Assembly: GCA_030324005.1 (NCBI GenBank)
Contig: JARDVH010000059.1
Span: 61,396,053 to 61,460,052 of the forward strand
Reading direction: 5' to 3'
DNA length: 64,000 nucleotides
Source: Negaprion brevirostris
Taxonomy: Eukaryota
The position numbers and the translations under genes are program-made. Below the pieces are notes generated by a model. The model was given only the letters and a program-made list of their open reading frames with translations, was not told the DNA's origin and searched no databases. Below, one piece after another: positions 11,969-60,054 of the stretch (position 1 is the stretch's first letter; every line of letters begins with the position of its first letter).

Positions 11969-12596
11969 CATAGATAACGTTTTAGACTGTGGATTTGTGT
12001 GTATTTCAATTGCATTTTATATTATGACAATAAAAATGTTCAAGTCATGGAGATAAAAAGAAAATAAGGCAAGGTTTGGTCATCTAAACTAAAGACAAAA
12101 CAGTTTGGAAGCATGCAGGAGTTTTTCAGCATCTGAAGGAGAAAGCTCCATTGATGTTTTAAATGTGACTCATCATCAGTAATAAATTAGAGCAGCAGTT
12201 CAAATTCAATTTACAAAATAATGTACCATAACTGGATGGCATTAATTACAAAATGCAAAAGAAAATAATTCTCATGAGCATTTTCATCAAGGATATTTAA
12301 AAAATCAATGGAATTATATTCTGTGTACCTTGAAAATTAGGATCAGTAATCTTGCAAAGAATTTAAGCAATGGCTTAATGTTGGATTTAGGAGTCTTGCA
12401 ACATGTGCAGTTCCTTGCATAGTGCTGCTGTCAAGAAATTCACAGGAGGTGACAACTACAGAAGCAGGGACTTTCTCAGTATCAGCTCAGAAACAGGTGA
12501 GAAAACGTGATAGAAATGTGAGAAATAAGACAAGAAAGAGTGCAGAACATAGGATTTGCAGGAACATCCACAGCACTACAACCAAGTGCTGGTATA

Positions 12597-12807
12597 TGTT
12601 GTAATTTGGAGAACTGACCCTTGGAAGCATGGCGGGTTAAAAATAATGGAGCTTTATTTACAAGATGTGTTCACTACATGGCTACTTCTTCACTCTGGCA
12701 GTTTCTTATTATAGTGACCTGTGACATCACCACCAGTTAATATATGAATACATTAATAATACACAGCACTTAGTGCAGCTACAAAGAATCAATATTAGTA
12801 CATAACA
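12597..12807 (-). repeat. 3' LTR of Gypsy element
   Basis: TG...CA bounded, abuts the PPT, aligns to 16379-16590. Confidence 0.88.
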
Positions 12808-16378: not shown

Positions 16379-16590
16379 TATCTTGGACTTTGGAGAAGTG
16401 ACATTAGGAAGCACTGCAGGTTAAAAAGAATGGAGCTTTATTTAGAGGGTGGTGTCCACTACATGGCTGCTTCTTCATTCTGGCAGTTTCTTGCACCAGC
16501 GCTTGTGACATTACTTCCAGTGAGTATATGAATATATTAATATACAGAGCTTAGTGCAGCTACCAAGTATCAATATTAATACATAATACA
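16379..16590 (-). repeat. 5' LTR of Gypsy element
   Basis: Shares AATGGAGCTTTATTTA, CACTACATGGCT, CTGGCAGTTTCTT, CTTAGTGCAGCTAC with 12597-12807; abuts the PBS. Confidence 0.88.
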
Positions 16591-18685: not shown

Positions 18686-20474
18686 CTGGCACATTGTAAA
18701 TTTCCATTAATAGATGAGGCTTATGATTTGTAAATGAGTTGCACATTATGGAATGGAAGACTTTGTAATATACATAATTATGGGATTTCACATTCTGGGC
18801 TTGTAATAACACACGGCTGCAAAATAAGGCCTTTTGGGGCCATGGGAATCAGGAAATTCTAAAACATGATATGATCCCCTCAGTTTTCTATGTGGGAGCA
18901 CTGTTGAATGCTGTGGTACAATGATAGATCAACTGCCCCATAATTCTTAATATTTGTTTTCCTTTCATTTTCTTTCTCCTTTTTAATCCTCCCGAAATCA
19001 CCATGCTTCTTTTCACAATTGATTTTTCCACATATCCTGACCTCGTGCATGTTAATTCCCAAGGGATCATGTTTCCTTCCTCTATACAACTGGTGGTAAA
19101 AAAAAGACACGTTAGTCTTTAAATTCAAGCCTGCTGGGTTTTATTTAGATAGGAGGGATCCAAAAACATACATACACTGGGAAATGAGGACACATGGCAA
19201 CAAAAATCCGAATATGTCTGGTACTTTTGTGTATCAGATTTTCAATAATTTCAACATTTATTTTTGAACGTTAAGTAAGATAGACAGAGAAATATACAAA
19301 ATATTGTCCTGACTGACAATGTGAATTCAACAGCTAATTTTAAATGCGCTTTGCAGCGGGCAGCCGATATGCATTCCTGCCCACTCCAGGGAAACAATCT
19401 TGGGGCTAGAAAGGTTATGTCCAGAGTTCTTTTTTTGTTTTTGGTGCAGTTGGCAATTCTAACACAAATTACACCCATTTTGAAAGGTGATTTTCTTTTC
19501 TCCTCTTGGGTATTTCCAAATCATAGAACACAAATTCTACCAACATCTTAAAAAGTAATCATTAGAAAAGATATATTCAAAACATATCCCCTTGATATAT
19601 TTAAAAGTGGTAACATGGTGGAGTTTGATTAACATAGCTGAACATGGATTTAGCTCAGAAAATAAGCATTTTATACAGTTCCAATCTACTGCCCATTCGT
19701 AATTTGATGTTATATTGCTGAAAATGACTTCTCAAAGATATGCAAAACTACTATCTAGAATGGATTGGCGTAAAGTAATCAGTTCCTCGGTGAATTAAAA
19801 ATACGGTTCAGTCAAAACCTTTCAAAGTGTGTCTATCATTGTCCTCACAGTCAAAAGATTCATAGTAATGCTTACAGCCTCCTCAAAGGCTTACAGATGA
19901 TCAAAATTAGCGACAATCCCAAAGACGATGAATTCATCCTGGAGATGAGATCAGTTTGGTGAGCCAGGTCTACATCTAGTTTAAAGTTTTTAAAACAGTC
20001 ACAGAAGTTTGTATAAACTTAATTTTCTCTGAATGCAATTTGTACTTAAAATTCTGTGACATTTCTTGCCAGCTATACTAATATTGGACAAATTGTGCCC
20101 AATAATAGGACAGGCAAATAGAAACTGACATTTGATATTTTAATACATATGTACATGACTTGGGGGAGCTGTTAACTTCTGAACTAGAACTTTAACTTCA
20201 GGATGCTTTCATATTTTGAAATCATTCATCCGGTTATTTTCAACCTGTTCGGATCCATAGACCATATTGATGGCAGCCTTAAAGCACACAGAGTGAATGC
20301 CTGCTCATCAGAAGTTTTACAAAATTGTTAAGGACTGTCAATCCACAAGCAATATTGGCTTGATATCAACCATTTTCATTTTGGAACATAGTAATCTAGC
20401 TAATGCCATCTCTGAATGGCTGAACACTCATCGAGCAGCAGGAAGGATCTTCACCACTACTGCTATATTTAAAG

Positions 20475-20604
20475 TGTCTTTATCTGACCTGTTTGTGAAC
20501 AGAACTCCCACTTACCTAACAAAGGAGCAGTGCTCCAAAAGCTAGTAGCTTTTGCTACTAAATAAACCTGTTGGACTTTAACCTAGTGTTGTGAGACTTC
20601 TTAC
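20475..20604 (+). mobile_element. Penelope-like pLTR fragment, family B, with 11-bp TSD and decayed hammerhead
   Basis: TATATTTAAAG at 20464-20474 and 20605-20615; CTAACAA-A-GGAGC-AGT-GCTCC-AAAAGCTA core; ends CTTCTTAC. Confidence 0.8.
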
Positions 20605-20934
20605 TATATTTAAAGGGACCATCAACTATTTACTGGCTGTTGCTGCAATTCTACAAGTTTCTAATGCTTTCTCTCATAGTTTAAAGTTGCAGAGATCTAC
20701 AGGCAATGATTTGGGAGGGACTGTGAAAGACCTTTTCTTTAAAGCCTCTGCCCAACACAATTTCTCCCAGACATGAATGTATGACTATCTGTTCCAGTGC
20801 ACTCACTTCCACGATCTGCCACGCTTCTGTCTCTGCCAGGTAAGAATCAGATGTAGAGCGATTTCCATCATCTGATCCAGCCACAACAACCTCTCTTTTA
20901 AGAGCTGGAGACTGTGCAGTGCAGGCTGGTTTTA

Positions 20935-22020
20935 AATAGTGCAAAAGCTTTGGCAAAATAGGTTTTAAAGAATGACTTAAAGGAGGAAAGTTAGGTTGAA
21001 AAGCAAAGAGGCTCAGGACTGCAGTCCAGAGCTTGGGGCCTAGACAACTGAAGGCAAGGCCACCAATGATCGAGCAATAAAGGGTGCTCCAGAAGCCAGA
21101 ATTAGATCAGCAAGATATCTCAGAAGGTTATGTTTGAGAAGTGGAAATAGACTGTCTTAGTGGTAGGGTAAATAGTTTTAGTCTATTCATACGTGTCACA
21201 AGTTGGCTTACATTAACACTGCAATGAAGTAACTATGAAAATGTCCTAGTTGCCACACTCCCACACCTGTTTAGGTACACCGAGGGAGAATTAAACATGG
21301 ACAATGCACCTAACCGGCACATCTTTCTGACTATGGGAGGAAACTGGACCACCCAGAGGAAACCCACACAGACACAGGGAAAATGTGCAAACTCCACACA
21401 GACCGTGACTTAAGCCGAGAATCGAACCTAGGTCCCTGTGCTGTGAGGCAGCAGCGCTAACCATGGTGCCACCGTNNNNNNNNNNNNNNNNNNNNNNNNN
21501 NNNNNNNNNNNNNNNNNNNNNNNNNNNNNNNNNNNNNNNNNNNNNNNNNNNNNNNNNNNNNNNNNNNNNNNNNNNTGGACCACCCAGAGGAAACCCACAC
21601 AGACACAGGGAAAATGTGCAAACTCCACACAGACAGTGACTTAAGCCGAGAATCGAACCTAGGTCCCTGTGCTGTGAGGCAGCAGCGCTAACCATGGTGC
21701 CACCGTGCATGAGGCCGGAAGTGATCTCAGGATCAAATGTGACATCAAGGTTGCAAATAGAATGTCATAATCGTGGAGTGCTGCCAGGGAGAAGCTAGAG
21801 TCGGCAGCTAGGGAATGGAGTTTAGAGTGAGGAGTGGCTTCAGTGTTCCCAGTATTCAACTGGAGGAGATTTCTGTTCATTCAGTACAGGGTGTGAGATA
21901 ATTTATTCTGATAATATAGCAACAGTGGAGAAGTGAAGAGAGATGGTAGTGAGATAGAAATGTGGGTCACTGGCGTACATGTGCCTTTGGCTGATGTTGC
22001 CAAAAGTCAGCATGTAGTTA
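20935..22020 (-). mobile_element. L2-like LINE relic interrupted by an HE1-type SINE
   Basis: Reversed L2 3' motifs (TTAAAGGAGGAAAG, CCAGAGCTTGGGGCCTAGACAACTGAAGGC) and continuation after 21710. Confidence 0.65.
21188..21706 (-). mobile_element. HE1-type SINE; head duplicated across an N gap
   Basis: Typical body and tail (ACATTAACACTGCAATGAAG); ~21345-21475 is repeated almost exactly at 21576-21706. Confidence 0.88.
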
Positions 22021-37800: not shown

Positions 37801-37921
37801 ATCAACAATGGACTGTTTAATCTGTGCTGGAGCTGTTAGTCAGAAAAGTCTCAGCAGCTCATGGACCATCAATTCCTTGTGTACAATTCCTTCTTGGATC
37901 TGCCCTGGAGCTGTCAATCAA

Positions 37922-38066
37922 GATGCCGGCGTTGGACTGTGGTAAACACAGTAAGAAGTCTCAAAACACCAGATTAAAGTCCAACAGGTTTATTTTTCCA
38001 AAAGCTAGTGACGTTGGCTACAAATAAACCTGTTGGACTTTAACTTGGTGCTGTGAGACTTCTTAC
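37922..38066. mobile_element. Fold-back Penelope-like pLTR mini-element, family B, perfect 12-bp TSD
   Basis: GCTGTCAATCAA at 37910-37921 and 38067-38078; inverted arms GTAAGAAGTCTCA..AGGTTTATTT / AAATAAACCT..TGAGACTTCTTAC. Confidence 0.85.
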
Positions 38067-39123
38067 GCTGTCAATCAAAACAGTTCTGAGAGCTTTCAGT
38101 GCTAGAAAGGAGAATCTCCTGAGTGAAATTGAATGCTCCTATCCATCAAAGTATTTCAAAGACGTTTCAGAGCAGCTCGGCCTTATGAGAGAAAGCAAGG
38201 GGATATCTCTGGAGAAACTGATAGATCCTGTCACTCAAAGCACTTCAAAGAGGTTTGTAACACCTGAAGCTTCTAAAATCAACCAAAGGCAATCCCTACT
38301 ATAGAATGCTGCNNNNNNNNNNTTCAAAGGTTTTACGGACAACAATAAAGATCTTTAGCAGAAAGGTGCCTGAAATATCCATCCTAACAATGTTTTCCAG
38401 GCAACAGGAAGTCCAGCCATGAGAGCCCCATCCTTTGGGAAAGGCCTGAAGTCCACCGTTCACCTTAACCTGAGCCCCATCCCAACCCCCCCAACAACGT
38501 GGTCTCGACAGTTTCCCCCTCTGCAGCCTGGCAGCGGCAGAGAAGCCCATGGACACAGTGCAGGCAGTACTCACCTCCTTACCCCCTCCACCACCCTCCC
38601 CGCCTTCAGAGTCCATGGCGCCTGGTCCCCGATTGTCAGGACCAGGAGACATTGGCACCATGGGACCATACTGGGTGGCTGGACCAAATGTCATTGTCCA
38701 TAATGACATTCACATTTAAATCAGTTATGATCAGGTTCTCACCCGCTCTGGGTGAGAACCTGACTGGGGCCAGGCACAATGGCTGGGAGAATCACAATGG
38801 GTGCGACGTCCACCAAGAATCCTGACCTGGCCCTCTCGCCTGACTCAATGGGTCACACATATTGCAGTTGGCACTAGCAACCTTGGAGAATCCACCCCTA
38901 ACCCCCAACTAACACCCCCCCCACCGTCCCCCCAAAATCCAATTGATATTAATGACAAGGAAAAAAGGACTAAAGACAGGCACATGGGTCACTCTTAGAT
39001 GTTAAATAATATTATAAGATCAGTTGAATCTAGCCATTAGCACCTCTTAGTTGGATATTTGTCTCCCTGTGGTGTAACAGTCAAATTACTATACAAATAG
39101 TGTATGACTTAATTAAAAACAGA

Positions 39124-40000
39124 GGGGGCGATCTTAGCAAAAAAATTCTAAGTGCCGAACAAGTGTGAAAACGGGAGAGTTTCAGATCCATTTTTTTGAC
39201 AAGGCCACAAATAAAATCTTACGGCATTTAATGCAAAAAAGATACACAATCTGATTTCTGCCAGTAGGTGGATGTGGCTAAGCTCACCTGAAAGCTGGCT
39301 GCTCATACAAGAGGGCACAATCATGTATGTGCTGGACTCTCTATGCAACAGCGTCTGGATTTCGCCCGCCTACCCCCGCTCATGATCACTGGCCTCCCCA
39401 GCCGACTGGTCCCCATATACCCTGGATATTGCACCCCCACCACTCCTGGTCATTCGTTGCCTCCCCGGCCCAGCTGATCACCTCCCCCCAACTTGGCCCG
39501 GTCAACTACCTCCCACCTGACCCGGTCGATCGCCCCATCCCAGTCCAGCCTGGCCGATCACCCTCCCCCAGCACTGCCAAGGTGCCAAGCTGGCAATNNN
39601 NNNNNNNNNNNNNNNNNNNNNNNNNNNNNNNNNNNNNNNNNNNNNNNNNNNNNNNNNNNNNNNNNNNNNNNNNNNNNNNNNNNNNNNNNNNNNNNNNGTC
39701 GATCGCCCCATCCCCGTCCCGCCTGGCCGATCACCCTCCCCCAGCACGGCCAAGGTGCCAAGCTGGCAATATCAGGCAGGCACTGCCCTAGGAGCACTGC
39801 CCTTGACCACCAGAGGGGGCCTCATTGGCCTGCGGTCCTACCAGCAAAGTCATCATGCCAAGTCACGGGGGATCATACGTGTACCTCACCAGTGAGGACA
39901 TTCACAGGCAAGGCCACTAAGGCAAGTGAGCCCAGACGATTGCATCCTGAGCTCACTAATAATATTGAAATCAACATTTAAATCGATTTAAATACTATAA
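39124..40000. mobile_element. Harbinger-like MITE (left part)
   Basis: Left end GGGGGCGATCTTAGCAAAAAAATTCTAAGTGCCGAA is homologous to the left ends at 42580 and 52114. Confidence 0.65.
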
Positions 40001-40575: not shown

Positions 40576-42579
40576 TAAGTATTAAAATTGCTTTAAACTG
40601 AGTTGCTTTGCAAGCTTGCCAATGACAGAGTAGTTAGTGATAACTCATACTCAATTAATAAATCCCAATTAACTACAACAACTTGCTTTTCCTTATTGCT
40701 CCTCATCCAATTTAACAAAGCAATTTAAGCAGAAAAAATTAAATGGCAAAAGTAGAAGAGAGAGGAGGGAGGGTTATGATGAGGCTGAACCTTAGGTTAA
40801 ACATGGTCCAAAAGAAGAAGGTTGTGGAGGTCTCTGAAAGCAGCAGTGGAAATGGTGACCAAAGAGAACACGACAGAGGAAAGAGGTGGATGAATGAACA
40901 GCCACTAATAATTGAGCGCTGAGTTCAAGGACAGAAAAAAACCTGGTGTTCAAAAATGGAGTTTGTGTATGGGAATACAAGTCTGAAGGAGATCTTTGGA
41001 GGAAAGCCTGGGGTGAGGCTATAGAGGGATTTAAGTTCTTGCAAAATGTTGTATTTTATGAGCGATCCTTTAAGTTACATTGCAAAACAAAGCGCAATAA
41101 TTATTTCACCATTTAAAATTTTCAGCCAAATGTACAAAGGGAAAAATATTTACAGAAACAGTCAGCAGGTGTTGCTTCCTAAAAGGATTACGTTTTGTAA
41201 AATGTGGTTNNNNNNNNNNNNNNNNNNNTTTGTGTATAATGAAAGACAGACAACAAAGAGGTAGGGCCTCAAGGTTCTAAGTGGAATCCAGCCAACAGGA
41301 AAAGAAAAGGCTGGTATTTCAGCCATTGTATTCACTCCTAAAGCACATTGCCAATTCATCTTCCAGCCCATTATATGAAATTTAATTTAACCTGCCATGC
41401 AATTAATTCAGATGTTCAGCTTATTTTTCTCATGGCAGAATCCCTCACACAATGCCTTATTTAAATATTAATCAGTCCTCTTTCAATTAGGACTAATTTG
41501 CTTCACAGGGTTTCTCTCATTTTATGATTGCAGGAAAATGGAGGTAACTTGCAGCATTTGAGCATAATTAACATGGTATTTTTATAATACTGATACATCA
41601 AATGGGACCCTAATGAACCCTGCTGATTTCATTTAGTAAAGCCTGCCTCAAAGTTATAATTAAGACCAAAGCAGCCACCATTTCCTTGGATTGCTACAGA
41701 AGAAAGTTGAAAATAGAATTTATGTATACCACATAACTCCCTTTCTTCAGGAACTTTACCAATTTATTCAGGGGTCCCAGAAGAACATTAGTCAAACACA
41801 GCCTCACAGCCTCCAGCATCAATCCGTTCCATTTATCTTCCTTTTGCAGCCATTCTAAATCAGGGCCATTTGTGGACAGAAAGCAGCGAATGATGGGGGA
41901 CAAAGACATTTCAAATGCAGTTCCATGCACTTAGATGTAAGTAAGACCCTATAGTACCTTATGAAGACCCACAAAAAAGGTGATCTCTGGAGCTATCAGC
42001 CCTTTGTACTATAAAGCAGGGAATCTCCAAAGTGCCTTGGAGGTGTCAGTATCATGTCTCTTACTGGCAATGATCCTGCAGTGTAAACATGCCATTAATG
42101 TTCTATACAAGTTTCCTGAATATTGATACTTATATAAATATTACTATATTATGCCAAACTATCTTCAAACATCATTTGGCATAGCAAAGGCAAAAATAAA
42201 TTGGTGATCATTTGCAAACTAATTTTTTCAGACTATGTTCCTCTGCTGGAGCACTATGCAAGTCAAAATTTATGACCTTCTGTCTAGAATCTGCCTTGTG
42301 TGCTTCCTAGGTAACCAATAACAGTCATGTGACTCCAGCAGTACAAGGTTCACGGAATAAAATGTCTAAAATAACCAGTAGCTGTCTAAACTAAAATAAG
42401 TTGAAAGAAACAACCAGCCTTTTCTCACAGAATAAGGGATATGCTTTTCCTGATGTATCTGATTAAAAAGAACTGGAATTATTTTTGCTGCCTCTGCTTT
42501 GGGCAATGTTACCAATACAAAAATAACAGGCTACTCTTTGCAACATGATGAATCTTCATGGAACTAATCTAGTTCAGAT

Positions 42580-43621
42580 AGATTCTCCCCAAAAAATCCA
42601 AGTGTTGAATTCACGTAAAAACTGGAGAAAATCCCACTGGTGTTTTCAGCAGCAGTTTCGAAATGAATCTCCTACACTCTATGCACTGAAGAGGGCACTA
42701 GTGTAAATCAGTCCAAAAAATCAGTGGACAGGGCCTATCCCCGCTGGAGAGGTTGGCAGCATAGTGCTGAGTGGGCCACTATGAATGTGCGATCTGTCAG
42801 TGCTGAGACTGGCGCATGCGCAGTACCCGGCGCTTCCAGCTTCCTGACTGCTGGCTAGCTCAATCGCTGTCTGGGCCAGGCTCCCCTACCCTGCCCCCAG
42901 TCCACCTCGATCTCCCCTGCCCTCCCCAGCCCCAATCGCCCCCACTGGCAGCCCCAATCACATCCCGCTCCACAATCTTGATCCTTACCCGCACTGTAGC
43001 CCCAATTCCGCAGCAAGCTGACCCCCCCACCCCGATAGCCAGCCTCCCACCCTTTGTCACTCAGCCCGAATGCAGAGTGGCAGCGTGATCCCCCATCCCC
43101 ACTGATCAGCCCCCAGAGGTCCGCCCCATTAGGCACTGCGCTATTAGGCCCAATGCTCAGATGGCAGTGCCAAGGTGCCCCTAGGCATTGGGGACTCTGT
43201 CCCTTGGGCAATGCCAGGGGGCCCAGGCTGGCAATGTAAGGGGCACCCCCCCAGTGCCCAACCCTCTGGGGGGGCCTTGATTGCGCCCCCCCCTCCTCAC
43301 TCTGGCCGGGTTAGACCACCAGCTCCCCATTAGTGGGGAGCTATTGTAAACCCCGCTGGAGTGAAACACTCCTGTCCGGTTGCAGGGGTGAGGGGAGATG
43401 CTAGTGGGCCCGGAGATTGCAGTCCTGGGCTCGCTAATAATATTTAAAATATATGGTAATAAACATTACCATAACTTATGCAGTTCCGCACCAATTTCTG
43501 GGCAGAGCTGAGGGCACTGGAAATCCAGCTGCTGGAGACTCAGGGAGGCCATGGTGCCCAGAGGGGAGCCTGCGAATCGGCCTCTGCTAGAGTCTCCTTG
43601 CCTGCTGCGTGACAAAAGCAG
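42580..43621. mobile_element. Harbinger-like MITE, left part (right end displaced to 47840-47877)
   Basis: Left end GATTCTCCCCAAAAAATCCAAGTG; strong similarity to 52114-52480; breaks at GTGACAAAAGCAG. Confidence 0.75.
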
Positions 43622-44633
43622 TCATGATGTGGAGATGCCGGCGTTGGACGGGGGTAAACACAGTAAAAAGTCTGACAACACCAGGTTTCAGTCCAACCGA
43701 TTTATTTGATAGTAAATTCAAATTGAATTTACTATCAAATTCAAATTGAATTTACTATCAAATAAATCAGTTGGACTGAAACCTGGTGTTGTCAGACTTT
43801 TTACATCATTAACATTCCCAGTGAAGACATTTGTAATGTATGGGAGCACACATTGGGAATTTGAGTCCAGGAATTTCCTCCTGAATTTCCAGTATCCAGT
43901 CCAGGCATGGGAAGTTCTGCACCTATTGAAATACCCAGCAGTGTTTTAAAGCAGTTGTGCTGCCAATGCATATTTCTAGTGTCTGAGTTACCAAATTTAA
44001 ATATGATGCTTCAGAAGAGAACACAGATCCTGTACATAGTTGCAATGTTGCAACTGGACCAATTGTGGGAGCTGTGATTGTAGCTTTCTACCCTAATTTC
44101 CTGGTAGTATGATATGTAAATACTAAAGGTTACTTATGATCTTGTAGCTGAGCTTGAATGAACTCAGAGGCAGAATCATAGGTTTGTTACAGTGCGGAAG
44201 GAAGGCTTATTCTGTATGCACCTTCTCTATAAATGAGACACCGGTCATTGAAATGCTGCATTAAACGTAATTATTAATAGTAATGATCAAGTTATTGATT
44301 TGCAAGTGCAAAATAGAAAGATTATTTTTGCTTTTAAGTTCTTCTTCACGCTTCTCTTAATTCATTGTAACACCTGCACTACTCCATCAATAAGACAAGC
44401 AAACAGTGAAACAGCACGTAGCTTCGGTGGAGAGTGGGATTGGCAGGCTGTTTCACCATGGGAGCCACCACATTACAAGTCCAGTTCTCTTTTCAGTCAT
44501 CATTCATGCACTATCTTTCCTAGCAGAAGGTACTGAGTAGCACTGATTCCTTTCTGTTCTTTAGTCTAGGAATGCTAAAGCCAAATGCAATAGATCGTTA
44601 ACTGTTGTAACAGATACATTGTTTTGCATTCAT

Positions 44634-45300
44634 TAAAGTAAAGTTTATTTATTAGTCACAAGTAAGCTTACATTCACACTGCAATGAAGTGACTGTNNNN
44701 NNNNNNNNNNNNNNNNNNNNNNNNNNNNNNNNNNNNNNNNNNNNNNNNNNNNNNNNNNNNNNNNNNNNNNNNNNNNNNNNNNNNNNNNNNNNNNNNCCTC
44801 TTCCACCATCCATCAGCTGAAACATCACCATCCATCATCTTAAACTTCTACCGCCTGTTTACTCTCTTATGCACCTAGTCTCAATCGCCCAATATGTCTG
44901 TACCCTCTGACCTGCACTACATTGGCTCATAAGTAGGCAACATGCACATTTTGAAATTCTCATCCTTGTTTTCAATCACCCCATGGTGACAGAGTCTTCT
45001 CAATCCCTGTCATCTGCTCTGTCTCACAGTCTCCCTGCATTCCTCCAATTCTGGTCTTGTGCCTCTCCAATTTTAATTACTCACAATTGATGGCTGTGTT
45101 TGCAACTGCCATAGGCCTTAAACCCCTCAGCTTCACTTTCCCCTTTTTCAGACATTCCTTAAATTCTGCATCCTTGATCAAGCTGTTGGTCATCTGACCT
45201 AAAATCTCCTTGGGCAGCTTAGTGTCAGCATCAACATCAACGTCAATGTCAAATTTTGTTTGATAAAACTCCTGTGAGGCACTTGACATGATTTTGCAGT
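44634..45300. mobile_element. SINE tail (minus), N gap, then L2 3' relic (plus)
   Basis: AAAGTTTATTTATTAGTCACAAG tail; L2 motifs ACATTGGCTC, TTTTGAAATTCTCATCCTTG, GGCCTTAAAC, CTCCTGTGAGGCACTT. Confidence 0.7.
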
Positions 45301-46167
45301 CATTAAAGGTGTTTATATTCATGCAGGTTTGTGCTGTACAAACAAGACTACATCTTGCATCTCTTAAACATGTTCAAGACACAGTGAGAGAAAGAGACTC
45401 AAACAGCTATGGCAGATTGTTAATGCTAAATGGTAGCAGCATATTCCACAAAGGAGTCGGTATCAGGTTCTAGGCTAGGCTGTTCAAAATCGAAAGGACC
45501 GCCTTGCTATACATGCTGTATTAGACAGCCCATCAGACTAAAAGACTCAACATGCGCTTTTAATGAGCACATATGCATTCATGTGAGACACTTGGGGTAT
45601 AGCTTACAAACCTTTTTCAATCAATATGTCATGTCAGGGACACCGATAGATCCATGTTAGTGAAATGGAAAATTCTTACTGCAGTGAACCCTTAACCCTT
45701 TTACAATGTTTGTGTAGTTTTATGCCTCTTATTATTATGTAACCATGGCTTCTTTGTCACAAAATCACTTCAGACTTTGACACAGATTGTACAGATGGTG
45801 AGGCTGAATGTAAATAGCCTGTCTTTAAATTATGACATTCAATCTTGAGGCCAATATGTCCATTTAGCAGCAAATGTTACTGCACTTTAAATGCAAACAG
45901 TATTTTTGACTATCTTACAATTATGTTGGCAATAATATCCCTGAAGTACTGAGTTGTCTCTTGTTATTTGTTTCCTCAGAGGTTGATTTGATTTGTTTCT
46001 TTTTAAGGGTAGTCATTGAACAGCCCGTTTCTTTTTCTTCTTCTTCTTCAATACACCGCCCAAAAGCAGATTGAACCAAAAGCATCATGACTGCCACCAC
46101 AGATAGGGCAAGGAGGCAGATCCTGAATCCACCCCACCCAAAGTGTTTGCAAGGGTTTATTGCCACA

Positions 46168-46322
46168 GTCTGAAAGACGTGTTGGTTCAGTGCATTGACC
46201 GTGCTAAATTTTCCCTCAGTGTACCCAAACAGGTGCCGGAATGTGGCCATGAGGGGATTTTCACAGTAACTTCATTGCAGTGTTAATGTAACCCTACTTG
46301 TGGTTAATAAATAAACTTTATA
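46168..46322 (+). mobile_element. HE1-type SINE 3' half
   Basis: TCTGAAAGACGTG..CAGTGTACCCAAACAGG..AATAAATAAACTTT. Confidence 0.85.
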
Positions 46323-46552
46323 AACAAAGCAGGGATTAAGTCCTGTTTTGTTGGCACCAGTCTGATCTGCACTGGCCATCCAGCCAAGTGGCTCTCCAGG
46401 CAGTCCATGTTGTTGTGGCAACATGCATTTTACATGCATGTTGTAGTCCAGAACCATGGATTGTGATGGTAAAGGCTTTAATTTTCTTTCCTTCACAAGG
46501 CCGGACAGGACTCCCTCACATTCTTACTACTTGCTATTGACACATGTTTAAA

Positions 46553-46682
46553 AGATTTACAGGTTGACACTCGGTCTGATTGACCGTGTTACGAACACAC
46601 CTTCCTTGACCATCAAGGCCTGAGTGGGACTCGAAACCTGGCTCAGAGGCAGGGACACTAACCATTGGGCCGCAAAATCTCC
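46553..46682 (-). mobile_element. Short tRNA-derived SINE (non-HE1)
   Basis: Minus strand reads GCGGCCCAATGGTTAG (A-box-like) .. GGTTTCGAGTCCC (B box). Confidence 0.65.
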
Positions 46683-47335
46683 AATAACCGTTACGTTGTG
46701 AGGTAAATCATTGCTGTAAAAATAGTCAAGCTAACCTTGTCCTTTTGTGTAAATTTGTTTTGACAATGTGATACCTCACACTGATTAAAACTTCCAACCT
46801 CATGGAGGAATGATTTTTTTTAAGAAAGGCAAAACTTCATTGACTCTAATGAATGTTTTTCTTCTCTTCTCGTCAGGTCAATCATTAACATGAACATTTT
46901 GTTGACTGCTACCAAACAAACTGACTTTTTTCCCTAGATTCGTAATTGGTCCAATATTATAAATAGCCTGACATTGTGCCAAGACGGAATGCACTTGTTC
47001 GTTAGTGTGGAGCAGCAATCAAAACCTTGTAGGACGCACTGCGAGATTCAGTCACGATTCCGCCTTCTTGTGCTTCAGTCAGATGGAAAGAAATTTGGCA
47101 GCGAGCTAAAAGTTCACCTTGCCTTGTCAGCATTTACCACATGAAAGCTACAGCTCAGGAAAAAAAAGGAACAGAGAATGACCAGCTGTGCCTCCCTGTC
47201 ATATCTGAGCACTGAGCTCATCATTCACTGGGCAATCGTTGGCTTTCTGCCTAAGTGCAGCCAAACATTATTAACCTTCACACTGAGGTAAGGTAATAAC
47301 AATATTTCTCCCTCCTTTTACTTGATGTGGGGCGT

Positions 47336-47364
47336 ACACACACACACACACATACACACACACA
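47336..47364. repeat. (CA)n microsatellite, interrupted
   Basis: Directly visible. Confidence 0.9.
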
Positions 47365-47839
47365 TGAGTGCTTCTTTATAATGCCTGGACTCACATCTAT
47401 GGCTCTACTGAAACCTTATCAACGGAAGAAGTATTCTTTAAAATTGAATGATTGCAGCTGCGCAAGGCAAATGCTCGTGCAGCTGACAGTTAAATAGGGG
47501 ATGATTTACAGCCAACGTGGCCTGAATAGATCTTATGTGGACTTAAGGCAAACTTACATTGTCTGACCCACCTTCGGGCATCATGGTGGACTGGGGAGGT
47601 GGGGGGGTGGGGAGGGGAAGTGGGGGGGACAGGTGAGGAAGGGCAAGGGGTCACAAGTTGCGTCTTTCGTTGCATAATCATTTCTTGGAGGATAAGTGAT
47701 AGCACATGTCAAGGTTCCAAAATCAGCTATGTGCAAATCCCAGACACTTCAACATCATTAGGGGCTAACCCGAAAACTAGTGAGTTTACTATCAAATAAA
47801 TCGGTTGGACTGAAACCTGGTTTTGTCAGACTTTTTACT

Positions 47840-47877
47840 GTGACAAAAGCAGCACAGTGGGATGTTAGAATCGCCCC
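47840..47877. mobile_element. Right terminus of the split MITE
   Basis: Ends AGAATCGCCCC, the reverse complement of the GGGGCGAT(T)CT left TIR seen at 39125. Confidence 0.7.
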
Positions 47878-48234: not shown

Positions 48235-49278
48235 TGGGCAGAATCTTGTGCTATTGCTGGTGGCGAGTTTGGAGGTGGGTAGGACAGATGCTTAGGCAGA
48301 ATGGTGTCATATGCCACATTCCCACCTCTGTCCACATTAGGTTCTGGATGGGAAAGGTGCAGAGCTGACCTTTTCACCCCACCACTGATTGAGGCCCTTA
48401 AGTAGCCATTTAATGACCACCTGAGGGCCTCAACCCACAGTGGCTAGAATTTACACAGCTGCCGGGAGGCCTCTCACCATGCAATATGAATGAAGGCTGC
48501 TGCCCTGAGTACAGGATCCCACCGCTGGGCTGGAGTGGGGAGGCTGTCTCCACCAGAGACTGTCTGTGCCTCTCTGAGCAACTTAACATCTTGAATTTTA
48601 CTACCCCATCTGCCATGGAATCAGAGCAGGAGAGGGGAAGACAACAGAAATGTCCATTAACCCCAGGACAGATTTTACAGTTTCGGGATGAGCGAGGCCG
48701 TAGAATCCCACCCAACAATGGGAAAGGGGGCCCGCCAAGGGCCAACCCCTACCCTTGCTTCTGAACCCTCCACAACCTTCCCCGTAAGAGCTGCCCACCT
48801 TCTCTCCATCCCTCCATCACTTATATTTGTCCTGGGTCGCTCCACGATCCTGAGAGACCAGAAGACAGTCTCTGGACAGCTGCCACTTCTGAACCCTCTA
48901 CAACCCTCCCTGCAAGAGCTTCCCTCCTCCGTCCCTCCATCACTTACCTTTGTCCTGGGTCACCTCACGATCGTGGGAGAGCAGAGGGCATTTTCTGGAC
49001 AGCAGCCATGGTCTCTTTCCATAATGCTGCTGCTGAGCACAAAAGCTGGTGATCTGATTGGCTGGCAGCTCTCGCTAGGTGAGAATCCATCCCCATTCCA
49101 TCCCCCACCCACCCCCTTTCCCCTCAGGGTCCTGATTCCAGAGGGCCCACTGCTAGGCCTTACCACTGTTTGTTTGGCTTGTAGCTCAGGAAAACTTCTG
49201 GAAAAGAGGCAGTGTAAGTCTCTCGCCAGCTCTCCAGCCAGCAGGTGAGACCCCCGATGTCGTCACCTCTTACTAGCC
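48235..49278. mobile_element. Harbinger-like MITE with internal ~125-bp tandem duplication
   Basis: Left end GGGCAGAATCTT; units 48758-48885 and 48886-49008. Confidence 0.65.
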
Positions 49279-52113: not shown

Positions 52114-52730
52114 TGGGCAGGATTCTCCCAAAAAAAGTGCCAAATTCATGTGAAAACTGGAGTAACTCCTAATGATTTTCTCAGCGGTATTTTCAGAATG
52201 AATCTCCCACACTCTGTGCCCTAGCGGATGACCTTTAAATCAGGAGGTGGGGCCTGTTCCCACCCAAGAGGCCGGCAGCATAGTGCTGAGTAGGCCACTG
52301 CGCATGCGCCAATCTGTCAGAGCAGAGATCGGCGCATACGCAGTGACCCTGCACTGCAGGCCTCCTGATCGTTAGCCAGACCTGCAACTCCACAGCGCTG
52401 CCCCTCTGAATCCCCCCTCCCCACTCCCCAGTTGCTGGCCTCCTAGACCTCTCCGGGCAAGCCCCGATGCCCACCCCCCACCCCTGCAGGGGTTTGTGCA
52501 GAGGTTTGGAGCCCATCCTTCCCAGCATGGAAGTGGTGACCAACTGCAGCAGCACTTTTGTGGATCCAACCAATAATACATCCAATGGCCAATGTCTCAA
52601 CTTTATTCCAGTACAAGTAAAGGGGACCTCTCCAGTCCTGCTGCTGTGATTGGAGATTTGACTGACCACCAAATTCTCCATTGTCACTGGCAGCATTAGT
52701 GGGGCATGCGAGGCCGGAGAATTCCGGCCT
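52114..52730. mobile_element. Harbinger-like MITE with captured 128-bp patch
   Basis: TIR-like GGGCAGGATTCTCC / GGAGAATTCCGGCC; 52488-52615 duplicates 54572-54699. Confidence 0.75.
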
Positions 52731-53329: not shown

Positions 53330-53670
53330 GAATGGTCCAGCTGTACAAGGTGCTGATGAGACCACAGCTGGAGTAGTGTGTACAGTTTTGGTCTCCTTAC
53401 TTGAGAAAGGATANNNNNNNNNNNNNNNNNNNNNNNNNNNNNNNNNNNNNNNNNNNNNNNNNNNNNNNNNNNNNNNNNNNNNNNNNNNNNNNNNNNNNNN
53501 NNNNNNNNNNNNNGATACATTTTTGAACAGTAAAGGAATTAAGGGTTATGGTGAGCGGGCAGGTAAGTGGAGCTGAGTCCACAAAAAGATCCACCATGAT
53601 CTTACTGAATGGCGGAGCAGGATTGAGGGGCCAGATGGCCTACTTCTGCTCCTAGTTCTTATGTTATGTT
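53330..53670 (+). mobile_element. CR1/HER1-like LINE 3' fragment across an N gap
   Basis: LYKVLMRPQLE*CVQFWSPYL motif; 3' UTR and tail TTCTTATGTTATG. Confidence 0.9.
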
Positions 53671-53929: not shown

Positions 53930-55453
53930 ACCTCTTAGAGTGGAGGTGTGTAATGACTGGAGAAGGTGCTGGCAGTCTCGCAGGAAGTGAGTTTGAATGG
54001 AACCAGGTAGCCTGAAAGATTAATGCCAGGATCTGGAAGAAATATTAAAGGAAGTTCAATGGCCTTACATGAGTAGTCAAGATTAGTTAATGTATCTTCA
54101 AACACTAGCTTCAACCAACTGCACCACTAGCCTCAACTACTGCTCCATTAACCAAAGGCACATCATGCACCTACCAACACTGTCTATCATTCAGAACTCG
54201 TGTCTAACATGTACCTACTACACTGCACTGTCACACACTGACCATTGCTACAAACCTCATACCGACATTTCACAACTTGCACACACTGCCAGCTCGTCAA
54301 CCAGGACAATCACTTGATCTCACACTCACAGCCATCTGCATAATTTAGAGGAATGCATAGAAGTACGATCTGTGTCTGTTAAGAGACTGGCCAGCCTGTG
54401 CAGCTAGGGAAAAATGAGGGCACACATGAGTTCTGCAGCAGGGAACTCAAATGTATACTTTGATGGGATCACCTGCAGAAGAAGGTTGATGGGTATGTTA
54501 ACAAACCCATGATGCACTGGGAAGCAAGCCAGAAATAAATGTCAAGGAGTGCAAAGAAATTGACAAACAATAGGGGTTTGTGCAGAGGTTTGGAGCCCAT
54601 CCTTCCCAGCATGGGAGCAGTGACTAACTGCAGCAACGCTCTTGTAGATCCAATCAATAATATGTCCAATGGCCAATGTCTCAACTTCCATTCAGTACAG
54701 CCAAAAGGCAGCCAATGTCTGGAAATTGCAATGGAGCCTCAGATTCTTGTTACTCAGGCTCAGGCTGCTGTTACTCAGGCTCAGATTCCTGTTACTCGGG
54801 CTCAGGCTGCTGTTACTCAGGCTCAGGCTGCTGTTACTCAGGTTCAGACTGCTGTTACTCAGGTTCTGACTGTTACTCAGGCTCAGACTATTGTTACTCA
54901 GGCTCAGGCTGCAGTTACTCGGGCTCAGGCTGCTGTTACTCAGGCTCAGGCTGCTGTTACTCAGGTTCAGACTTCTGTTACTCAGGTTCCAACTGTTACT
55001 CAGGCTCAGNNNNNNNNNNNNNNNNNNNNNNNNNNNNNNNNNNNNNNNNNNNNNNNNNNNNNNNNNNNNNNNNNNNNNNNNNNNNNNNNNNNNNNNNNNN
55101 NNNNNNNNNCTGCTGTTACTCAGGCTCATGCTGCTGTTACTCAGGCTCAGGCTTCTGTTACTCAGGCTCAGGCTGCAGTTACTCAGGCTCAGGCTGCTTT
55201 TACTCAGGCTCAGGTTGCTGCTACTCAGGCTCAGGCTGCTGTTACTCAGGCTCAGACTACTGTTAATCAGGTTTAGACTCCTTGTTACTCAGGCTCACAC
55301 TGCAGTTACTTAGGTTCAGATGGCTGTTACTCAGGCTGCAGTTACTCAGGCTCAGACTGCTGTTACTCAGGCTCAGGCTGCTGTTATTCCAGCTCCGACT
55401 GCTGCCATCATGATTATGGATGACAGTGTGAAAAAAGACTTGCAGGATACTGT
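53930..55453 (+). pseudogene. Harbinger Myb/SANT accessory gene relic
   Basis: EWNQVA*KINARIW..RKFNGL..VVK resembles the Myb/SANT end W..VA..IN..W..C.KKFNDL, followed by C/A-rich intron-like sequence and a coiled-coil-like tail (APTAAIM..VKKDLQ). Confidence 0.6.
54738..55386. repeat. 21-bp minisatellite (GCTCAGGCTGCTGTTACTCAG)n
   Basis: Over 20 visible units, some 18 or 15 bp, with an internal N gap. Confidence 0.95.
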
Positions 55454-58217
55454 NNNNNNNNNNTAACCTGAGTACAAACAGCACTCGACACTATGCATAA
55501 TCCAATGCAAGGTCTTTAATGACTTGTCCACAAGGAGAACCAGCACCTTGCAGTTGTCCTGGACAATGTTTCTGGAGTTACAGAAGAAACAACTTAGCAA
55601 TTATAGTCAATTACAACAAATCAGGAGCAAACAATTTTTCTAATCCTTTATTTGCATATAAATTCACCCAATAAAGCCTGGCTTTGTGCCTTTTCTCATT
55701 TGATGCAAAACTGACTTCTGCTAATCCTTCACTTGCATAGCATATCCCCATATCTCGCCTTTGGTATTAGTTATGGAAAAATCTGGTCTTGCTCACCCTG
55801 TGGTGAAGGCTGAAAAGCAGAATGTTATGGGGCCTATGCAGATGATGATTAGCCTGTTCATGCTGAAATAGCAGACACTGACTTCTTTGATGATCTGCGA
55901 GCTGATAAACATTTTAAAAACTGTACAGATAAGGCATGAAACTTTAATTGGAACATTTTAGCTTCTGCGCAATTTAGCTTCCAAACTTTGAAACTTCAAT
56001 CTCAGCATCTTAACTTCCGCAGTATAGCAGCAGTCCAGCAATCCGTCCTCCAGCAGGTGAATCAGATACTGAAGCGCCATGCTGAGAGAGTGGCAGTAAC
56101 TCTATGGAGCAATAATTTACTGTCCTCTCTCTGGAAGAATGAATTTTCCTCCCATCCTGCCACTTATTTGCACTCTTAGTGTTTTGTCAGCCAGCCAATG
56201 TTGGGTCAAAGCAACAGCAAGAAGACAAGCAGAAAGTAACCTGTGAAGAACCGATGTTCAGTCTCTTTTAACACCACTGGTGGTTGTTTGTGACAGGGAG
56301 GTATAACTCCTGCTTCTGAACACAAAAGGGTTCAGGAAGGATGTCAGCTGGAGTGCTGAACTTCAAAACAATGCTGTTTGCATCAAATTCATGCTGCAAG
56401 CTGACTGATGATCTATCTGCTTTTCACACTTCTGATAGCCACTAACTAACTGCATGATAATACCCTTATAAATGGAGGCAATTTAGTGCCCACATTCGCC
56501 ATGAGAATAAATGATGATGTAGGCATAAAAACCCACAATGTTTGTTGGGGGGAGGGGAAATGGGAGGGAGAGCCCCTTATATCTTTATAGTGGTGGGGGC
56601 AGGAGTGACTCTGATGCAAGTGGGACGTGGAGGGGGGGACCGTGTCCGTGGGCAGGAGGGGAACGGAGTGGAGAGAGTTTATCTTCAGTCCTAATCAGGA
56701 GGTTATCTTTAAAGGTTGGTGGAAAAATATGTTTGGTGGTAAGTGTACCATGTTTGGGAGGAACTGTTCCCAAAGCTGTCAACCATTGGAGTGGTTGCTG
56801 TGATCAGTCAACAACTCTATTATTATTTTGTATCATCTAACTGCCAGGATAGCAGACAGCAAACTAGATGAACCATGTTTTCTTTCTATCACAATTATTA
56901 TATTCATAAAGCAGTAATTGACAAACTAAATACATTGGAAGTGATTCTCTGAGATTCTGGGGGTGAAGTTCAGGCTCAGCAGATCTCCAGCTATAACGCC
57001 ATACCTGACAACTTCTGTTCTGAATGGGATTTGGTGCAGGAAGCTCTCACTGAAAACAACCACCAGCCTTATTCAAACTTAAATCAATGCAAATGAAATC
57101 AGATTCAATTTTCATTGATTTTTTTTAATCAGGAATTCAATCTGTCCAAGTGAAACTGTTGTTCCAATTTGCTAAGCAGAATGACTGGAAGTCAGCATTT
57201 AAAGAGGAATGGACATTAGTAGTTAGCAAAGCAAGAATATTGTAGGTGCCTCTGTAAGTGAGTAGGTGTGTTAGACCTGCTTTCATTCTCCTTTGGTCCA
57301 ACATTCCAGGGAATTGCTCTGCTGTCTGTCCAAAGTGTAAACTGGAATCCCATGTAGCCACTCGTTGGAGAAGACACTAAACTCCAGTGCGGTAATGGTT
57401 TGAATAGTTGAAACAGACAGGCAGAGTTTACGACAGCAGAGAATCTTCCTGAAAAAAGATCAAAATGGCACCCTACTTCTGCAGTTGAAGAAGCCTTATA
57501 CCCACAACTGGCAAAAGAGGCAAGTTATGAATTTTACTGTTTTCCTTTCTACCTCTGGATATTTTATGTTTTCTGGAATCTCTCTGTGCAGGTATGTCTT
57601 ATATTACAGAAGCAAAATACTGCAGTCAGGCATATAGAAAACAAAATGGGCAGAATTCTCAGGTGAACACAGGCATGTGTCCAGCTGCCACCCAGATTTC
57701 TGCTAGTCTTAAGAATGGGATGTAGAAGGTTTGTGGCTCGCTGGTTTACCATGAGAATTTAACGGGCTTGTAACTTGGCATAACCAGATTTAACTCAAAT
57801 TTATGCCCCTCCTCTCATAGGTGATCTGCCAAGACATAACAAATTCAGTGCCCTAGTGTTTTTGCCCTGCCATTTTCTGCTGAAATTTACATTTAAACCA
57901 TGGATATTCCTAACAGAATATCTTTCTACTTCTGTCATCAGAAGGAAGTACAGAAGGAAACAGAGGGATGGCAGGTTGGCAACATTACCAAATGGTATCA
58001 TATGTCAGTCTCTAATAGAAAAGATTTTCACCTTAATGCCCAACTGAACATTTCAGTTGTCTCTCTATGTCTTCACTAAATCCATGTTCACTGACATAAA
58101 CTTTAGCTGCCAGCAAGCTATCATGGATATTATTCACATCCCTAGCTAATACATTTTTCAACAACAAGTCAAGAACACTCAGTAAATCTTCAGTGCAACC
58201 ATTATTTTGTAAATTGA

Positions 58218-58482
58218 GTTTGTGTCTTTATATGCCCTGTTTGTGAACAGAACTCCCACTTACTTGATGAAGGAGCAGCACTCCAAAAGCTAGTGGCTTT
58301 TGCTACCAAATAAACCTGATGGACTTTAACCTGGTGTTGAGAGACCTCTTACTGTGTTTACCCCAGTCCAATGCCGGCATCTCTACATCTATTCTCTCTG
58401 CACGGATGCCATCAGACCTGTTGAGATTTTCCAGCATTTTTTATTTTTGTTTCAAATTCCAGCATCCGCAGTATTTTGCCTT
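58218..58482 (+). mobile_element. Penelope-like pLTR family B (decayed hammerhead) adjoining a family A terminus
   Basis: TTGATGA-A-GGAGC-AGC-ACTCC-AAAAGCTA at 58264-58292; continues to GCCGGCATCTCTACATC, then sequence homologous to 3650-3710. Confidence 0.8.
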
Positions 58483-59074
58483 TATCTCTGCTGCATTCAA
58501 TCCTCTCCCCTCGACCCCAAGCATAAAAGCACCCACCGCCATTCCATAACATCTTGCTTCCTCACCTCAAGTGGGTATTCTTCCCAGGTCATCCCAGACA
58601 GTGGGTGCCTCGCCCAGTTTACAATGACATAACTGCCCAACTTCATCCTGTCCTCTCTGCTACTCATGCCCATTACCAGAGAGTGTCATTTGGCAGTAAA
58701 CCTGGCAGTATTTCCACCCGCCCCTGCATTACTGACTCTCATTTCAACAAACACAATCCACAAAACAAGGGTTGCCACCTCATTGCTTGACCAATAAGAA
58801 TGATAGTAGATATCCATCACTGGGAAACAAGCAAACCAATGCCTCAAGGACAAAAAGGACCTTCAAGCAATTGCCTCATAAACAAAGCTAGCGCTCAAGC
58901 TCATCAATCTGAAATGTTAGTTCTGTTTCTTCTCCATATGTGCCGAGCATTTTTGTTAGTGGCTTGACTGTGAAAGACATGGTCAGCCCCTAACATTCCA
59001 CTCCTGCACTCACAACAACTGAATCCTGTATTTCTAGAGATGGAGTCACATTTACGGGCTGGCCACTACCAACA

Positions 59075-59129
59075 GTAAGAAGTCTCACAAATTCTTAGTG
59101 TGTTTACTCCACTCCAACGCCAGCATCAT
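59075..59129 (-). mobile_element. 55-bp fold-back pLTR stub with 11-bp TSD
   Basis: CACTACCAACA (59064-59074) / CACTCCCAACA (59130-59140); starts GTAAGAAGTCTCACAA. Confidence 0.7.
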
Positions 59130-60054
59130 CACTCCCAACAGTGCAGACAATTTCTACCTTGGTCACTGTGGTATATATGCGCAGACATGCAATCGGCACT
59201 CATTGGAAATCAAAGAAGAAGAAATCCCACTGTCCCCACTGTGAAAATCTAGCAAGATATTCTTGTTTCTCGAGGCAACAATAGGTTTATGGATCAGTAA
59301 CACTGACATGTCCTCAAGTGAGCTACCTTTAAATGGAAATTAGACTTGGTATGCGTAGACAGGGAAGAAAGGAGGAAAAGATAAAAATCATTCGTCTTTT
59401 GAAACTTCAAGAATTTAAACTATTGAAATACTGCTTCAATACTCACAGGTGGTGAAGTCAGACACCCAGTTTTCAGATGAGACATTCCAACATCCAGCGA
59501 AAGACAGTGAGAGAAAGGAAGCCACTTAATAAGGTTCAGAATCAGGAAGAGCATTTGAGGCGACGTACACATGGACAGACAGGGTCACAATACAAATCCA
59601 AGCAATACCATTGCAGCCTTTTTGTTTTAGATTATGACTGTTTCTTAAAGAGAGCAATTAAAGGTTGAAATAAACATAGAACAACAGCAAGGTTGTTTGC
59701 AAAGATCGCATCTTAAAAGCCTCAAAATCCCCACTCTACACCTTGCTTGCAATAAGCTCTTGCCCTCCACCCAACCGGCCTCTGTCACTGCACGTGCTTC
59801 CTTTCACTGTGCATGCCACTGATGAACATTGCTAGACAATCCTTAAGGCACAGAGCAGTCTGATGCCAGCCCCTCAGCAAAATGAGACATGACTGACCCC
59901 TCCCACCCTCCCCTGGGCCTGTTGCAGTTTGAGTTATGTGGAAAGGTGCAGATANNNNNNNNNNNNNNNNNNNNNNNNNNNNNNNNNNNNNNNNNNNNNN
60001 NNNNNNNNNNNNNNNNNNNNNNNNNNNNNNNNNNNNNNNNNNNNNNNNNNNNNN

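Follow-up and report, generated by a model that had tools for sequence, protein, structure and literature searches.

Host DNA between Penelope-like termini in Negaprion brevirostris: a possible exchange between two target sites

How does a block of ordinary host DNA come to lie between the termini of a Penelope-like element (PLE), inside another repeat? The question is raised by a locus of the shark Negaprion brevirostris (GenBank assembly GCA_030324005.1, contig JARDVH010000059.1, positions 61,396,053 to 61,460,052, the 64-kb window analysed here, numbered from its first letter), where three arms of PLE pseudo-long terminal repeats (pLTRs), designated a, b and d, frame about 3.9 kb of non-coding cargo, a 100-N assembly gap included, within what we take to be a miniature inverted-repeat transposable element (MITE). 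The initial annotation explained this arrangement as PLE-mediated capture and movement of kilobases of host DNA, and a part of that explanation stands: that one single PLE-linked event placed older host DNA inside the MITE is supported by the target site duplication (TSD), by the identity of the arms and by the older short interspersed elements (SINEs) of the cargo. The remainder has to be recast, because a short repeat at the inner borders of the arms suggests a reciprocal exchange that involved two target sites, and not simple capture between termini. That a two-site exchange of some topology took place appears probable to us; the more specific proposition, that a one-off DNA-level reciprocal exchange between two PLE cut sites integrated at least 3.9 kb of circular or circularly permuted host DNA into the MITE, we hold to be about evenly balanced between right and wrong.

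The order of the parts is A-T1-a/b-T2-cargo1-gap-cargo2-T2-d-T1-B, with T1 the outer target duplication and T2 the inner repeat. T1 is the 13-mer GTGACAAAAGCAG, which has exactly two copies in the window, at 43609-43621 and 47840-47852 (both plus strand), each directly adjoining a pLTR arm; in a chance test of this outer TSD, none of 3980 random anchor pairs had at least 7 nt matching. Between the two copies lie 4218 positions, a nominal length that includes the 100-N placeholder. The left end is a fold-back in which the inverted arm a (43622-43721, minus strand), bearing a tail of about 40 nt (43622-43662), meets the direct, tail-less arm b (43747-43804, plus strand) at a junction (43704-43763) that comprises a perfect 37-bp palindrome centred on 43722 and a 23-bp tandem duplication. 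The right end is a single direct arm, d (47761-47842, plus strand), 5'-truncated and tail-less, whose last 3 nt are common to T1. Over the 54-nt core, a differs from b at one position, a from d at one and b from d at two, and the identity of arm a to the four other arms compared is 43/54, 44/54, 37/45 and 41/49. The words GGACTGAAA and GTCAGACTTTTTAC are confined to the three arms within the window, and TACTATCAAAT occurs four times, the extra occurrence sitting in the local 23-bp duplication. Thus, the fold-back left end, the direct right end, the exact 13-bp TSD and the shared variants absent from the other pLTR copies hold as first described, and the near-identity of the arms, the private variants and the 13/13 match of the outer TSD still favour one event. 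Some details change. The duplication had been extended to 14 bp with a C/T change at a CpG, which is unnecessary given that the pLTR template supplies the T at 47839 (compare ...TTACTGTG in arm a), just as GTG, the first three nucleotides of the right T1 copy, is also template sequence and therefore microhomology with the arm; and the start of arm d, placed at 47781, is corrected to about 47761 by the inclusion of a small hairpin plus GAAA.

What, then, lies at the inner borders? The 9-mer ACATCATTA, here T2, which the initial annotation overlooked, is found at 43803-43811, where arm b ends and shares with it the first two nucleotides, and again at 47752-47760, where arm d begins (both plus strand); there is one further occurrence in the window. 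The seven nucleotides that are not templated by arm b match exactly at the two borders and, at arm d, occupy the expected place of the hammerhead core of the pLTR. The border of d is set independently of the repeat, by hammerhead geometry, that is, the bulged base, helix II and GAAA of the minimal hammerhead ribozyme (min-HHR) layout described in PMC4209133: the arm is truncated at the hammerhead-like helix II (47762-47771), which is followed by GAAA (through 47775). Random anchor pairs reached 7 nt at the exact edges in none of 3980 cases and 9 nt within +-2 positions in 2 of 3971, or in 6 of 2968 when the left word was fixed; the chance P for T2 is 0.0004 with 3 allowed end positions and 0.003 with 21. 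Attempts to absorb the right-hand copy into pLTR sequence have little success. Upstream of d the sequence is not clearly pLTR (anchored score 6, at least equalled by 13 of 300 random anchors, against 66 for the positive control), and this is the best of four comparisons, the other three being not significant, so that the 9-mer makes a weak part of arm d; nor does the end of the cargo look like an old decayed pLTR tail, for there is no extension past the 9-mer and 65 of 400 random anchors do as well. The presence of T2 at both borders would mean that each pLTR bridge joins two different target sites: T1 and T2 flank the left bridge, T2 and T1 the right one, a pattern that has statistical backing and falls short of proof, T2 being short and tail-like.

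These observations can be accommodated by the following scenario, in which both target sites would have been used by one young PLE subfamily. At T1, within the MITE, the sequence carries the normal two-ended PLE signature, namely, an inverted arm with a tail to the left, a direct arm lacking one to the right and the 13-bp duplication. At the second site, T2, the statistics above suggest a duplication over 7-9 bp, with one copy after the 3' end of b and the other before the 5'-truncated d, which is how the flanks of an ordinary PLE insertion look. The donor would originally have had the order cargo-2 end, T2, cargo-1 start, and if the two ends of the cargo were once adjacent, the cargo is circularly permuted. 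The four ends would have been joined crosswise by swapped nascent cDNAs in two simultaneous target-primed reverse transcriptions; a later crossover between two near-identical pLTR stubs of about 60 bp would give the same sequence outcome and seems less likely, given that the homology is short and the private variants are shared, both of which argue for simultaneous swapping. Provided that the gap in the cargo is a true join, cargo 1 runs into cargo 2 and the donor would have been a circle: as far as we can reason, no two-break exchange of linear chromatids makes both junctions direct with cargo 1 leading into cargo 2, which leaves a circle, a tandem duplicate or a false join at the gap. Reverse transcriptase (RT) and endonuclease would have been supplied in trans, the reverse-transcribed part would amount to only about 260 bp of pLTR, and the cargo would have moved as DNA. 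The palindrome between a and b suggests that self-priming took part.

Several points weigh against this exchange with a circular donor. The P values for T2 were obtained after the fact, the repeat having been found by inspection; at 7-9 bp it is shorter than the 11-13 bp TSDs of the control copies, and ATT, the sequence preferred by a PLE protein (PMC11167929), is not present in T1. Furthermore, T2 is an 8-of-9 match to the final 9 nt of the pLTR tail, a degree of match with only 29 instances on both strands of the window, and the left copy could be a remnant of the tail after a 32-nt deletion, a reading that covers the left copy and leaves the identical right one unexplained; the likeness may also be the reason why this site primed. 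Because the palindrome is perfect, arm b might be a snap-back copy of a and not an independently primed cDNA. No repeat in the window bridges the rejoined cargo ends, so their former adjacency is not proven, and nothing ties together the flanks of the gap at 44697-44796, a SINE end on the left and unrelated DNA on the right.

The resemblance of T2 to the tail also speaks for capture in trans at the level of RNA, the model put forward for the rotifer Adineta vaga with an antisense or unspliced RNA template (PMC3846280). Applied to the shark locus, this explanation would have a read-through transcript between two pLTRs, or a template switch onto a host RNA, reverse-transcribed from T1, with the inverted arm produced by second-strand priming or snap-back; the cargo would be collinear with its donor and the inner 9-mer a matter of microhomology or chance. 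The 8/9 match of the left 9-mer counts in its favour. However, the deletion of 32 nt would have to stop precisely where RT recurrently starts in arm b, an identical 9-mer would have to occur at the right border by chance, and both copies would have to carry the same difference from the tail. Moreover, arm b stops at a recurrent internal insertion end and does not continue through the tail or into an open reading frame (ORF). Taking all this together, we regard capture through RNA as rather doubtful.

The cargo and its gap bear on a different alternative. Cargo part 1 (43805-44696) is unique DNA that ends in a SINE-like fragment (44631-44696, minus strand), followed by the 100-N gap (44697-44796), and cargo part 2 (44797-47760) consists of a LINE2-like relic (about 44797-45335), a SINE-like segment (46155-46320), an (AC)n run (47336-47364) and unique DNA; the family labels SINE and LINE2 are our assumption. 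The SINE-like copies of the cargo are 79-90% identical to other copies in the window, which makes the interior of the cargo older than the arms. GC content, skew and CpG offer no usable contrast between cargo and flanks; one unique stretch of the cargo, 46930-47140, is apparently richer in CpG (observed/expected 0.38 over 46330-47751, 0.15-0.35 elsewhere) and has no coding match. Could the two bridges be the junctions of a reciprocal inversion or translocation between two sites on linear chromosomes, with no DNA inserted, brought next to each other when the contigs were scaffolded at the gap, or through re-inversion at a later time? Two breaks would then suffice and no circle would be called for; with 11 gaps in 64 kb, contig ends are to be expected within 1-3 kb of any junction; and the two flanks of the gap in the cargo remain unlinked. 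Inversions and translocations are also the usual outcomes of the L1-mediated exchanges discussed below (bioRxiv 10.1101/2024.08.27.596794; 10.1101/2024.12.14.628481).

Against this stands the behaviour of the gaps themselves. Of the six other 100-N gaps, three are flanked left and right by the same sequence, one lies between LINE-like stretches and two are uninformative; the three cases indicate that such gaps are often local, which favours local joins. In particular, the gaps at 39598 and 55010 are locally continuous and the gap at 53414 is flanked on both sides by sequence that we take to be LINE-like, so that no small flipped block is evident, and a search for such a contig block found no gap flank in the window that could be tested as a continuation of the SINE at 44696. 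Both contigs, moreover, pass through T1 unbroken, and the scaffolder would have needed links from an unrearranged haplotype or reference. An exchange between linear chromosomes is, accordingly, unlikely in our judgement. At 21345-21706 and 39525-39770, sequence is doubled across 100-N gaps (131 bp at 99% and 73 bp at 96%, respectively), which marks unmerged contig overlaps, and a 21-bp tandem array runs across a gap at 54735-55404.

The same permuted order and nested duplications would, by our reasoning, arise without a free circle if the donor were a tandem segmental duplication whose unit already contained a short PLE insertion at T2, and if homology-directed repair or an RNA route placed a copy of one unit in the PLE site at T1. 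This presupposes one more earlier event, the end of arm d is template sequence and not T2, and no second copy or paralogue of the cargo exists in the 64-kb window; we consider a tandem donor very improbable. As for unrelated pLTR insertions that flank native DNA by chance, or an assembly artefact, the family is common enough (seven arm-sized matches in the window besides the query copy), but the exact 13-bp TSD abutting both outer arms, the split MITE terminus and the private variants of the arms make this hardly credible.

Does the cargo encode anything that could have moved it? No Pfam family was found at the curated cut-off in any of the 63 cargo ORFs of at least 33 amino acids, one sub-threshold match to a domain of unknown function (E 0.0066) notwithstanding, nor in any of 12 read-through frames, so a hidden PLE or host ORF within the cargo can be set aside and the initial view of an interior without recognisable RT or GIY-YIG coding is borne out. 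Neither a PLE RT nor a GIY-YIG domain was detected in the cargo ORFs or in 101 other window ORFs of at least 80 amino acids. The further proposal, a cargo-carrying non-autonomous unit, is not sustained: the window holds no second copy of the cargo and no further copy of the whole unit, and arm b ends at an internal insertion end, where the 5' pLTR of an element would continue through the tail. In the scenario above the product would not be a replicating unit, and nothing supports a replicating cargo carrier. The locus is probably an old event without a recognisable gene, and neutral.

With no RT or endonuclease present, it is terminal structure, and this structure only, that supports the PLE identity of the arms. 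Here we find direct and inverted pLTRs, 5' truncation and a palindrome at the inverted junction, together with a short TSD, 13 bp at this locus and 11-13 bp at three of the four other family loci (20474, 37921 and 59072; no TSD was found at the fourth, 58215-58389). The other copies of the family are single arms or fold-backs, and the controls, three copies of the same family and one of a second family, have ordinary 11-13 bp TSDs and the same two types of end. These two recurrent ends lie about 40 nt apart, as with an optional tail of 30-40 nt: b, d, 20612, 38066 and the left arm at 59072 end near ...TTAC, and a, 37921, 58389 and 59127 end up to about 41 nt past it. The end of arm b falls at the same template position as that of the control arm 37997-38066 and within 2 nt of that of 20474-20612. 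A relaxed hammerhead scan found decayed core-helix II layouts at 58264 (same family) and 3614 (second family) plus two other matches; helix II folds in three of three copies tried, with overall folding z-scores that are not significant, and Rfam gave no matches in the whole window, nor any for one pLTR copy with E relaxed to 10. When one arm frame served as a protein query, two matches came back among eight candidates, both of them unnamed translations of the same repeat and neither giving a link to an RT.

A biochemical parallel is the Poseidon PLE protein of the green anole, PAc, which cleaves and extends both strands; two internal RT start sites bound the tail, and ATT is preferred (PMC11167929), in keeping with T2, which contains it. 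The two arm ends about 40 nt apart in the shark match these two start sites, and the extension of both strands and the start sites around a 30-40 nt tail are common to both systems, as would be the hammerhead motif in the pLTR, of which the shark copies have putative, decayed forms. The work on PAc was done in vitro and without cargo, and PAc initiates without target homology (PMC11167929), unlike most junctions here, where 1-4 nt of microhomology can be seen. PLEs in general are described as having complex tandem and inverted ends (PMC8557442). Other copies in the window are a compact fold-back, used as a control, that belongs to the commoner pLTR subfamily and has an exact TSD of 12 bp (37910-38078); a lone tail-less arm with a TSD of 11-12 bp (20464-20615); a tiny fold-back of about 55 bp, in which the tail-less arm is the inverted one, with a 13-bp TSD containing one mismatch (59064-59142); and a fold-back of a second pLTR-like family (3456-3725), which includes the hammerhead-like core at 3614 and whose 12-bp TSD copies differ at two positions. 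At 58196-58501, a tail-bearing arm of the first family is directly fused to an arm of the second (58388-58501), with no TSD found; this fusion may be a nested insertion, a template switch or another swapped junction.

The target of the insertion is a MITE-like non-coding element of about 1.07 kb, of which the left 1.04 kb or so lies at 42577-43621 (plus strand) and the distal 25 bp, the second hairpin arm and the terminus, at 47853-47877 (plus strand). Related sequence lies at 52121-52379 (70% identity over 280 nt) and at 39922-39970 (84% over 50 nt); the 5' end of the element resembles the reverse complement of 47867-47877, and the 25 bp to the right of the insert are a hairpin arm and terminus of the kind seen at 39124. 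The two hairpin arms are identical at 6 of 10 positions, and all four mismatches are transitions at would-be CpG positions. Removal of the interval had been said to rejoin a MITE, and the hairpin arm and terminus do fit; since the 64-kb window has no intact copy for comparison, the rejoining is plausible, not proven. A 12-nt inverted match between 43618-43629 and 46083-46094 was dropped as a meaningful feature, being at about the level expected by chance in 5.6 kb. A 128-bp segment is repeated at 88% between 52488-52615, within the MITE-like element that starts at 52121, and 54572-54699.

How does all this compare with known systems? The outer architecture, two direct pLTRs and one inverted pLTR with a TSD around some 4 kb of non-PLE DNA, is already published for Adineta vaga, where Pen3a-mediated mobilisation of a nonribosomal peptide synthetase (NRPS) gene and non-coding captures between solo pLTRs were reported (Arkhipova et al. 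2013, PMC3846280). The shark locus has the same parts, non-PLE DNA between two direct pLTRs, an inverted pLTR and an outer TSD; a near-perfect palindrome lies at the inverted junction in both cases (38 bp in the rotifer, 37 bp here), and the enzyme would have acted in trans here as well. In Adineta vaga, however, a gene was carried and the insertion was borne out by an empty site on the other allele, whereas the cargo here is non-coding and the host is, by its repeat families, a shark-like vertebrate; and the rotifer account, in its available text, mentions no inner duplication or permuted cargo, in contrast to the 9-mer shared by the inner borders here (PMC3846280). Swapped TSDs ('heteroduplication') are given as the mark of L1-mediated reciprocal translocations and inversions between two target sites (bioRxiv 10.1101/2024.08.27.596794; 10.1101/2024.12.14.628481), with reporter support in PMC13526784, and these events resemble ours in having two bridges, chimeric or split, each with one copy of two different TSDs. 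The L1 exchanges described are somatic, human, poly(A)-primed and usually far apart or on two chromosomes; the shark locus is PLE-like, apparently germline and old, and has both junctions direct and 4 kb apart. Finally, duplication via a circular intermediate, in which a segment of the genome forms a circle that is opened at another point and goes back in with its order permuted (PMC7188851), shares with our locus the permuted reinsertion; such duplications were recognised by comparison with the donor, with no retroelement bridge or TSD named in the text available, whereas here the permutation is deduced from the inner repeat only. Among the top results of full-text searches, which covered few subscription papers, none described nested TSDs or a permuted cargo in a PLE, or such an event in a shark, and the accessible parts of PMC9977147 and bioRxiv 2026.07.22.740005 hold nothing on cargo capture.

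Little else in the window helps to order the pieces. The search for a host gene around the locus gave a Pfam match in one of the 101 window ORFs, an RT/RNase H relic (RT_RNaseH_2, E 1.4e-08) of LTR-retroelement-like character at 13400-13642 on the minus strand. Direct repeats of 82% identity (12595-12805 and 16379-16586) lie around this relic, and a two-copy tandem repeat with a unit of about 123 bp occupies 48758-49008.

Might the mechanism extend beyond this locus? We advance only tentatively, as a possibility that we doubt more than we believe, the general hypothesis that PLE 'gene capture' is not retrotransposition and that a two-ended PLE integration complex opens a chromosomal site together with a second DNA, a circle, and links the two crosswise via short cDNA bridges. 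If true, such joining would leave nested TSDs and permuted cargo, and would account for the transport of host genes, introns included, by PLEs. An inner second TSD offers a cheap and sharp test of a DNA-level alternative to the RNA template, applicable to pLTR-rich genomes and to the rotifer NRPS locus. Two-site exchange, so far described for L1 in tumours and cell lines, would be extended to another class of enzyme and to inherited genome structure, and in vertebrates PLEs would act in the germline as integrases of extrachromosomal circles and would drive reciprocal rearrangements.

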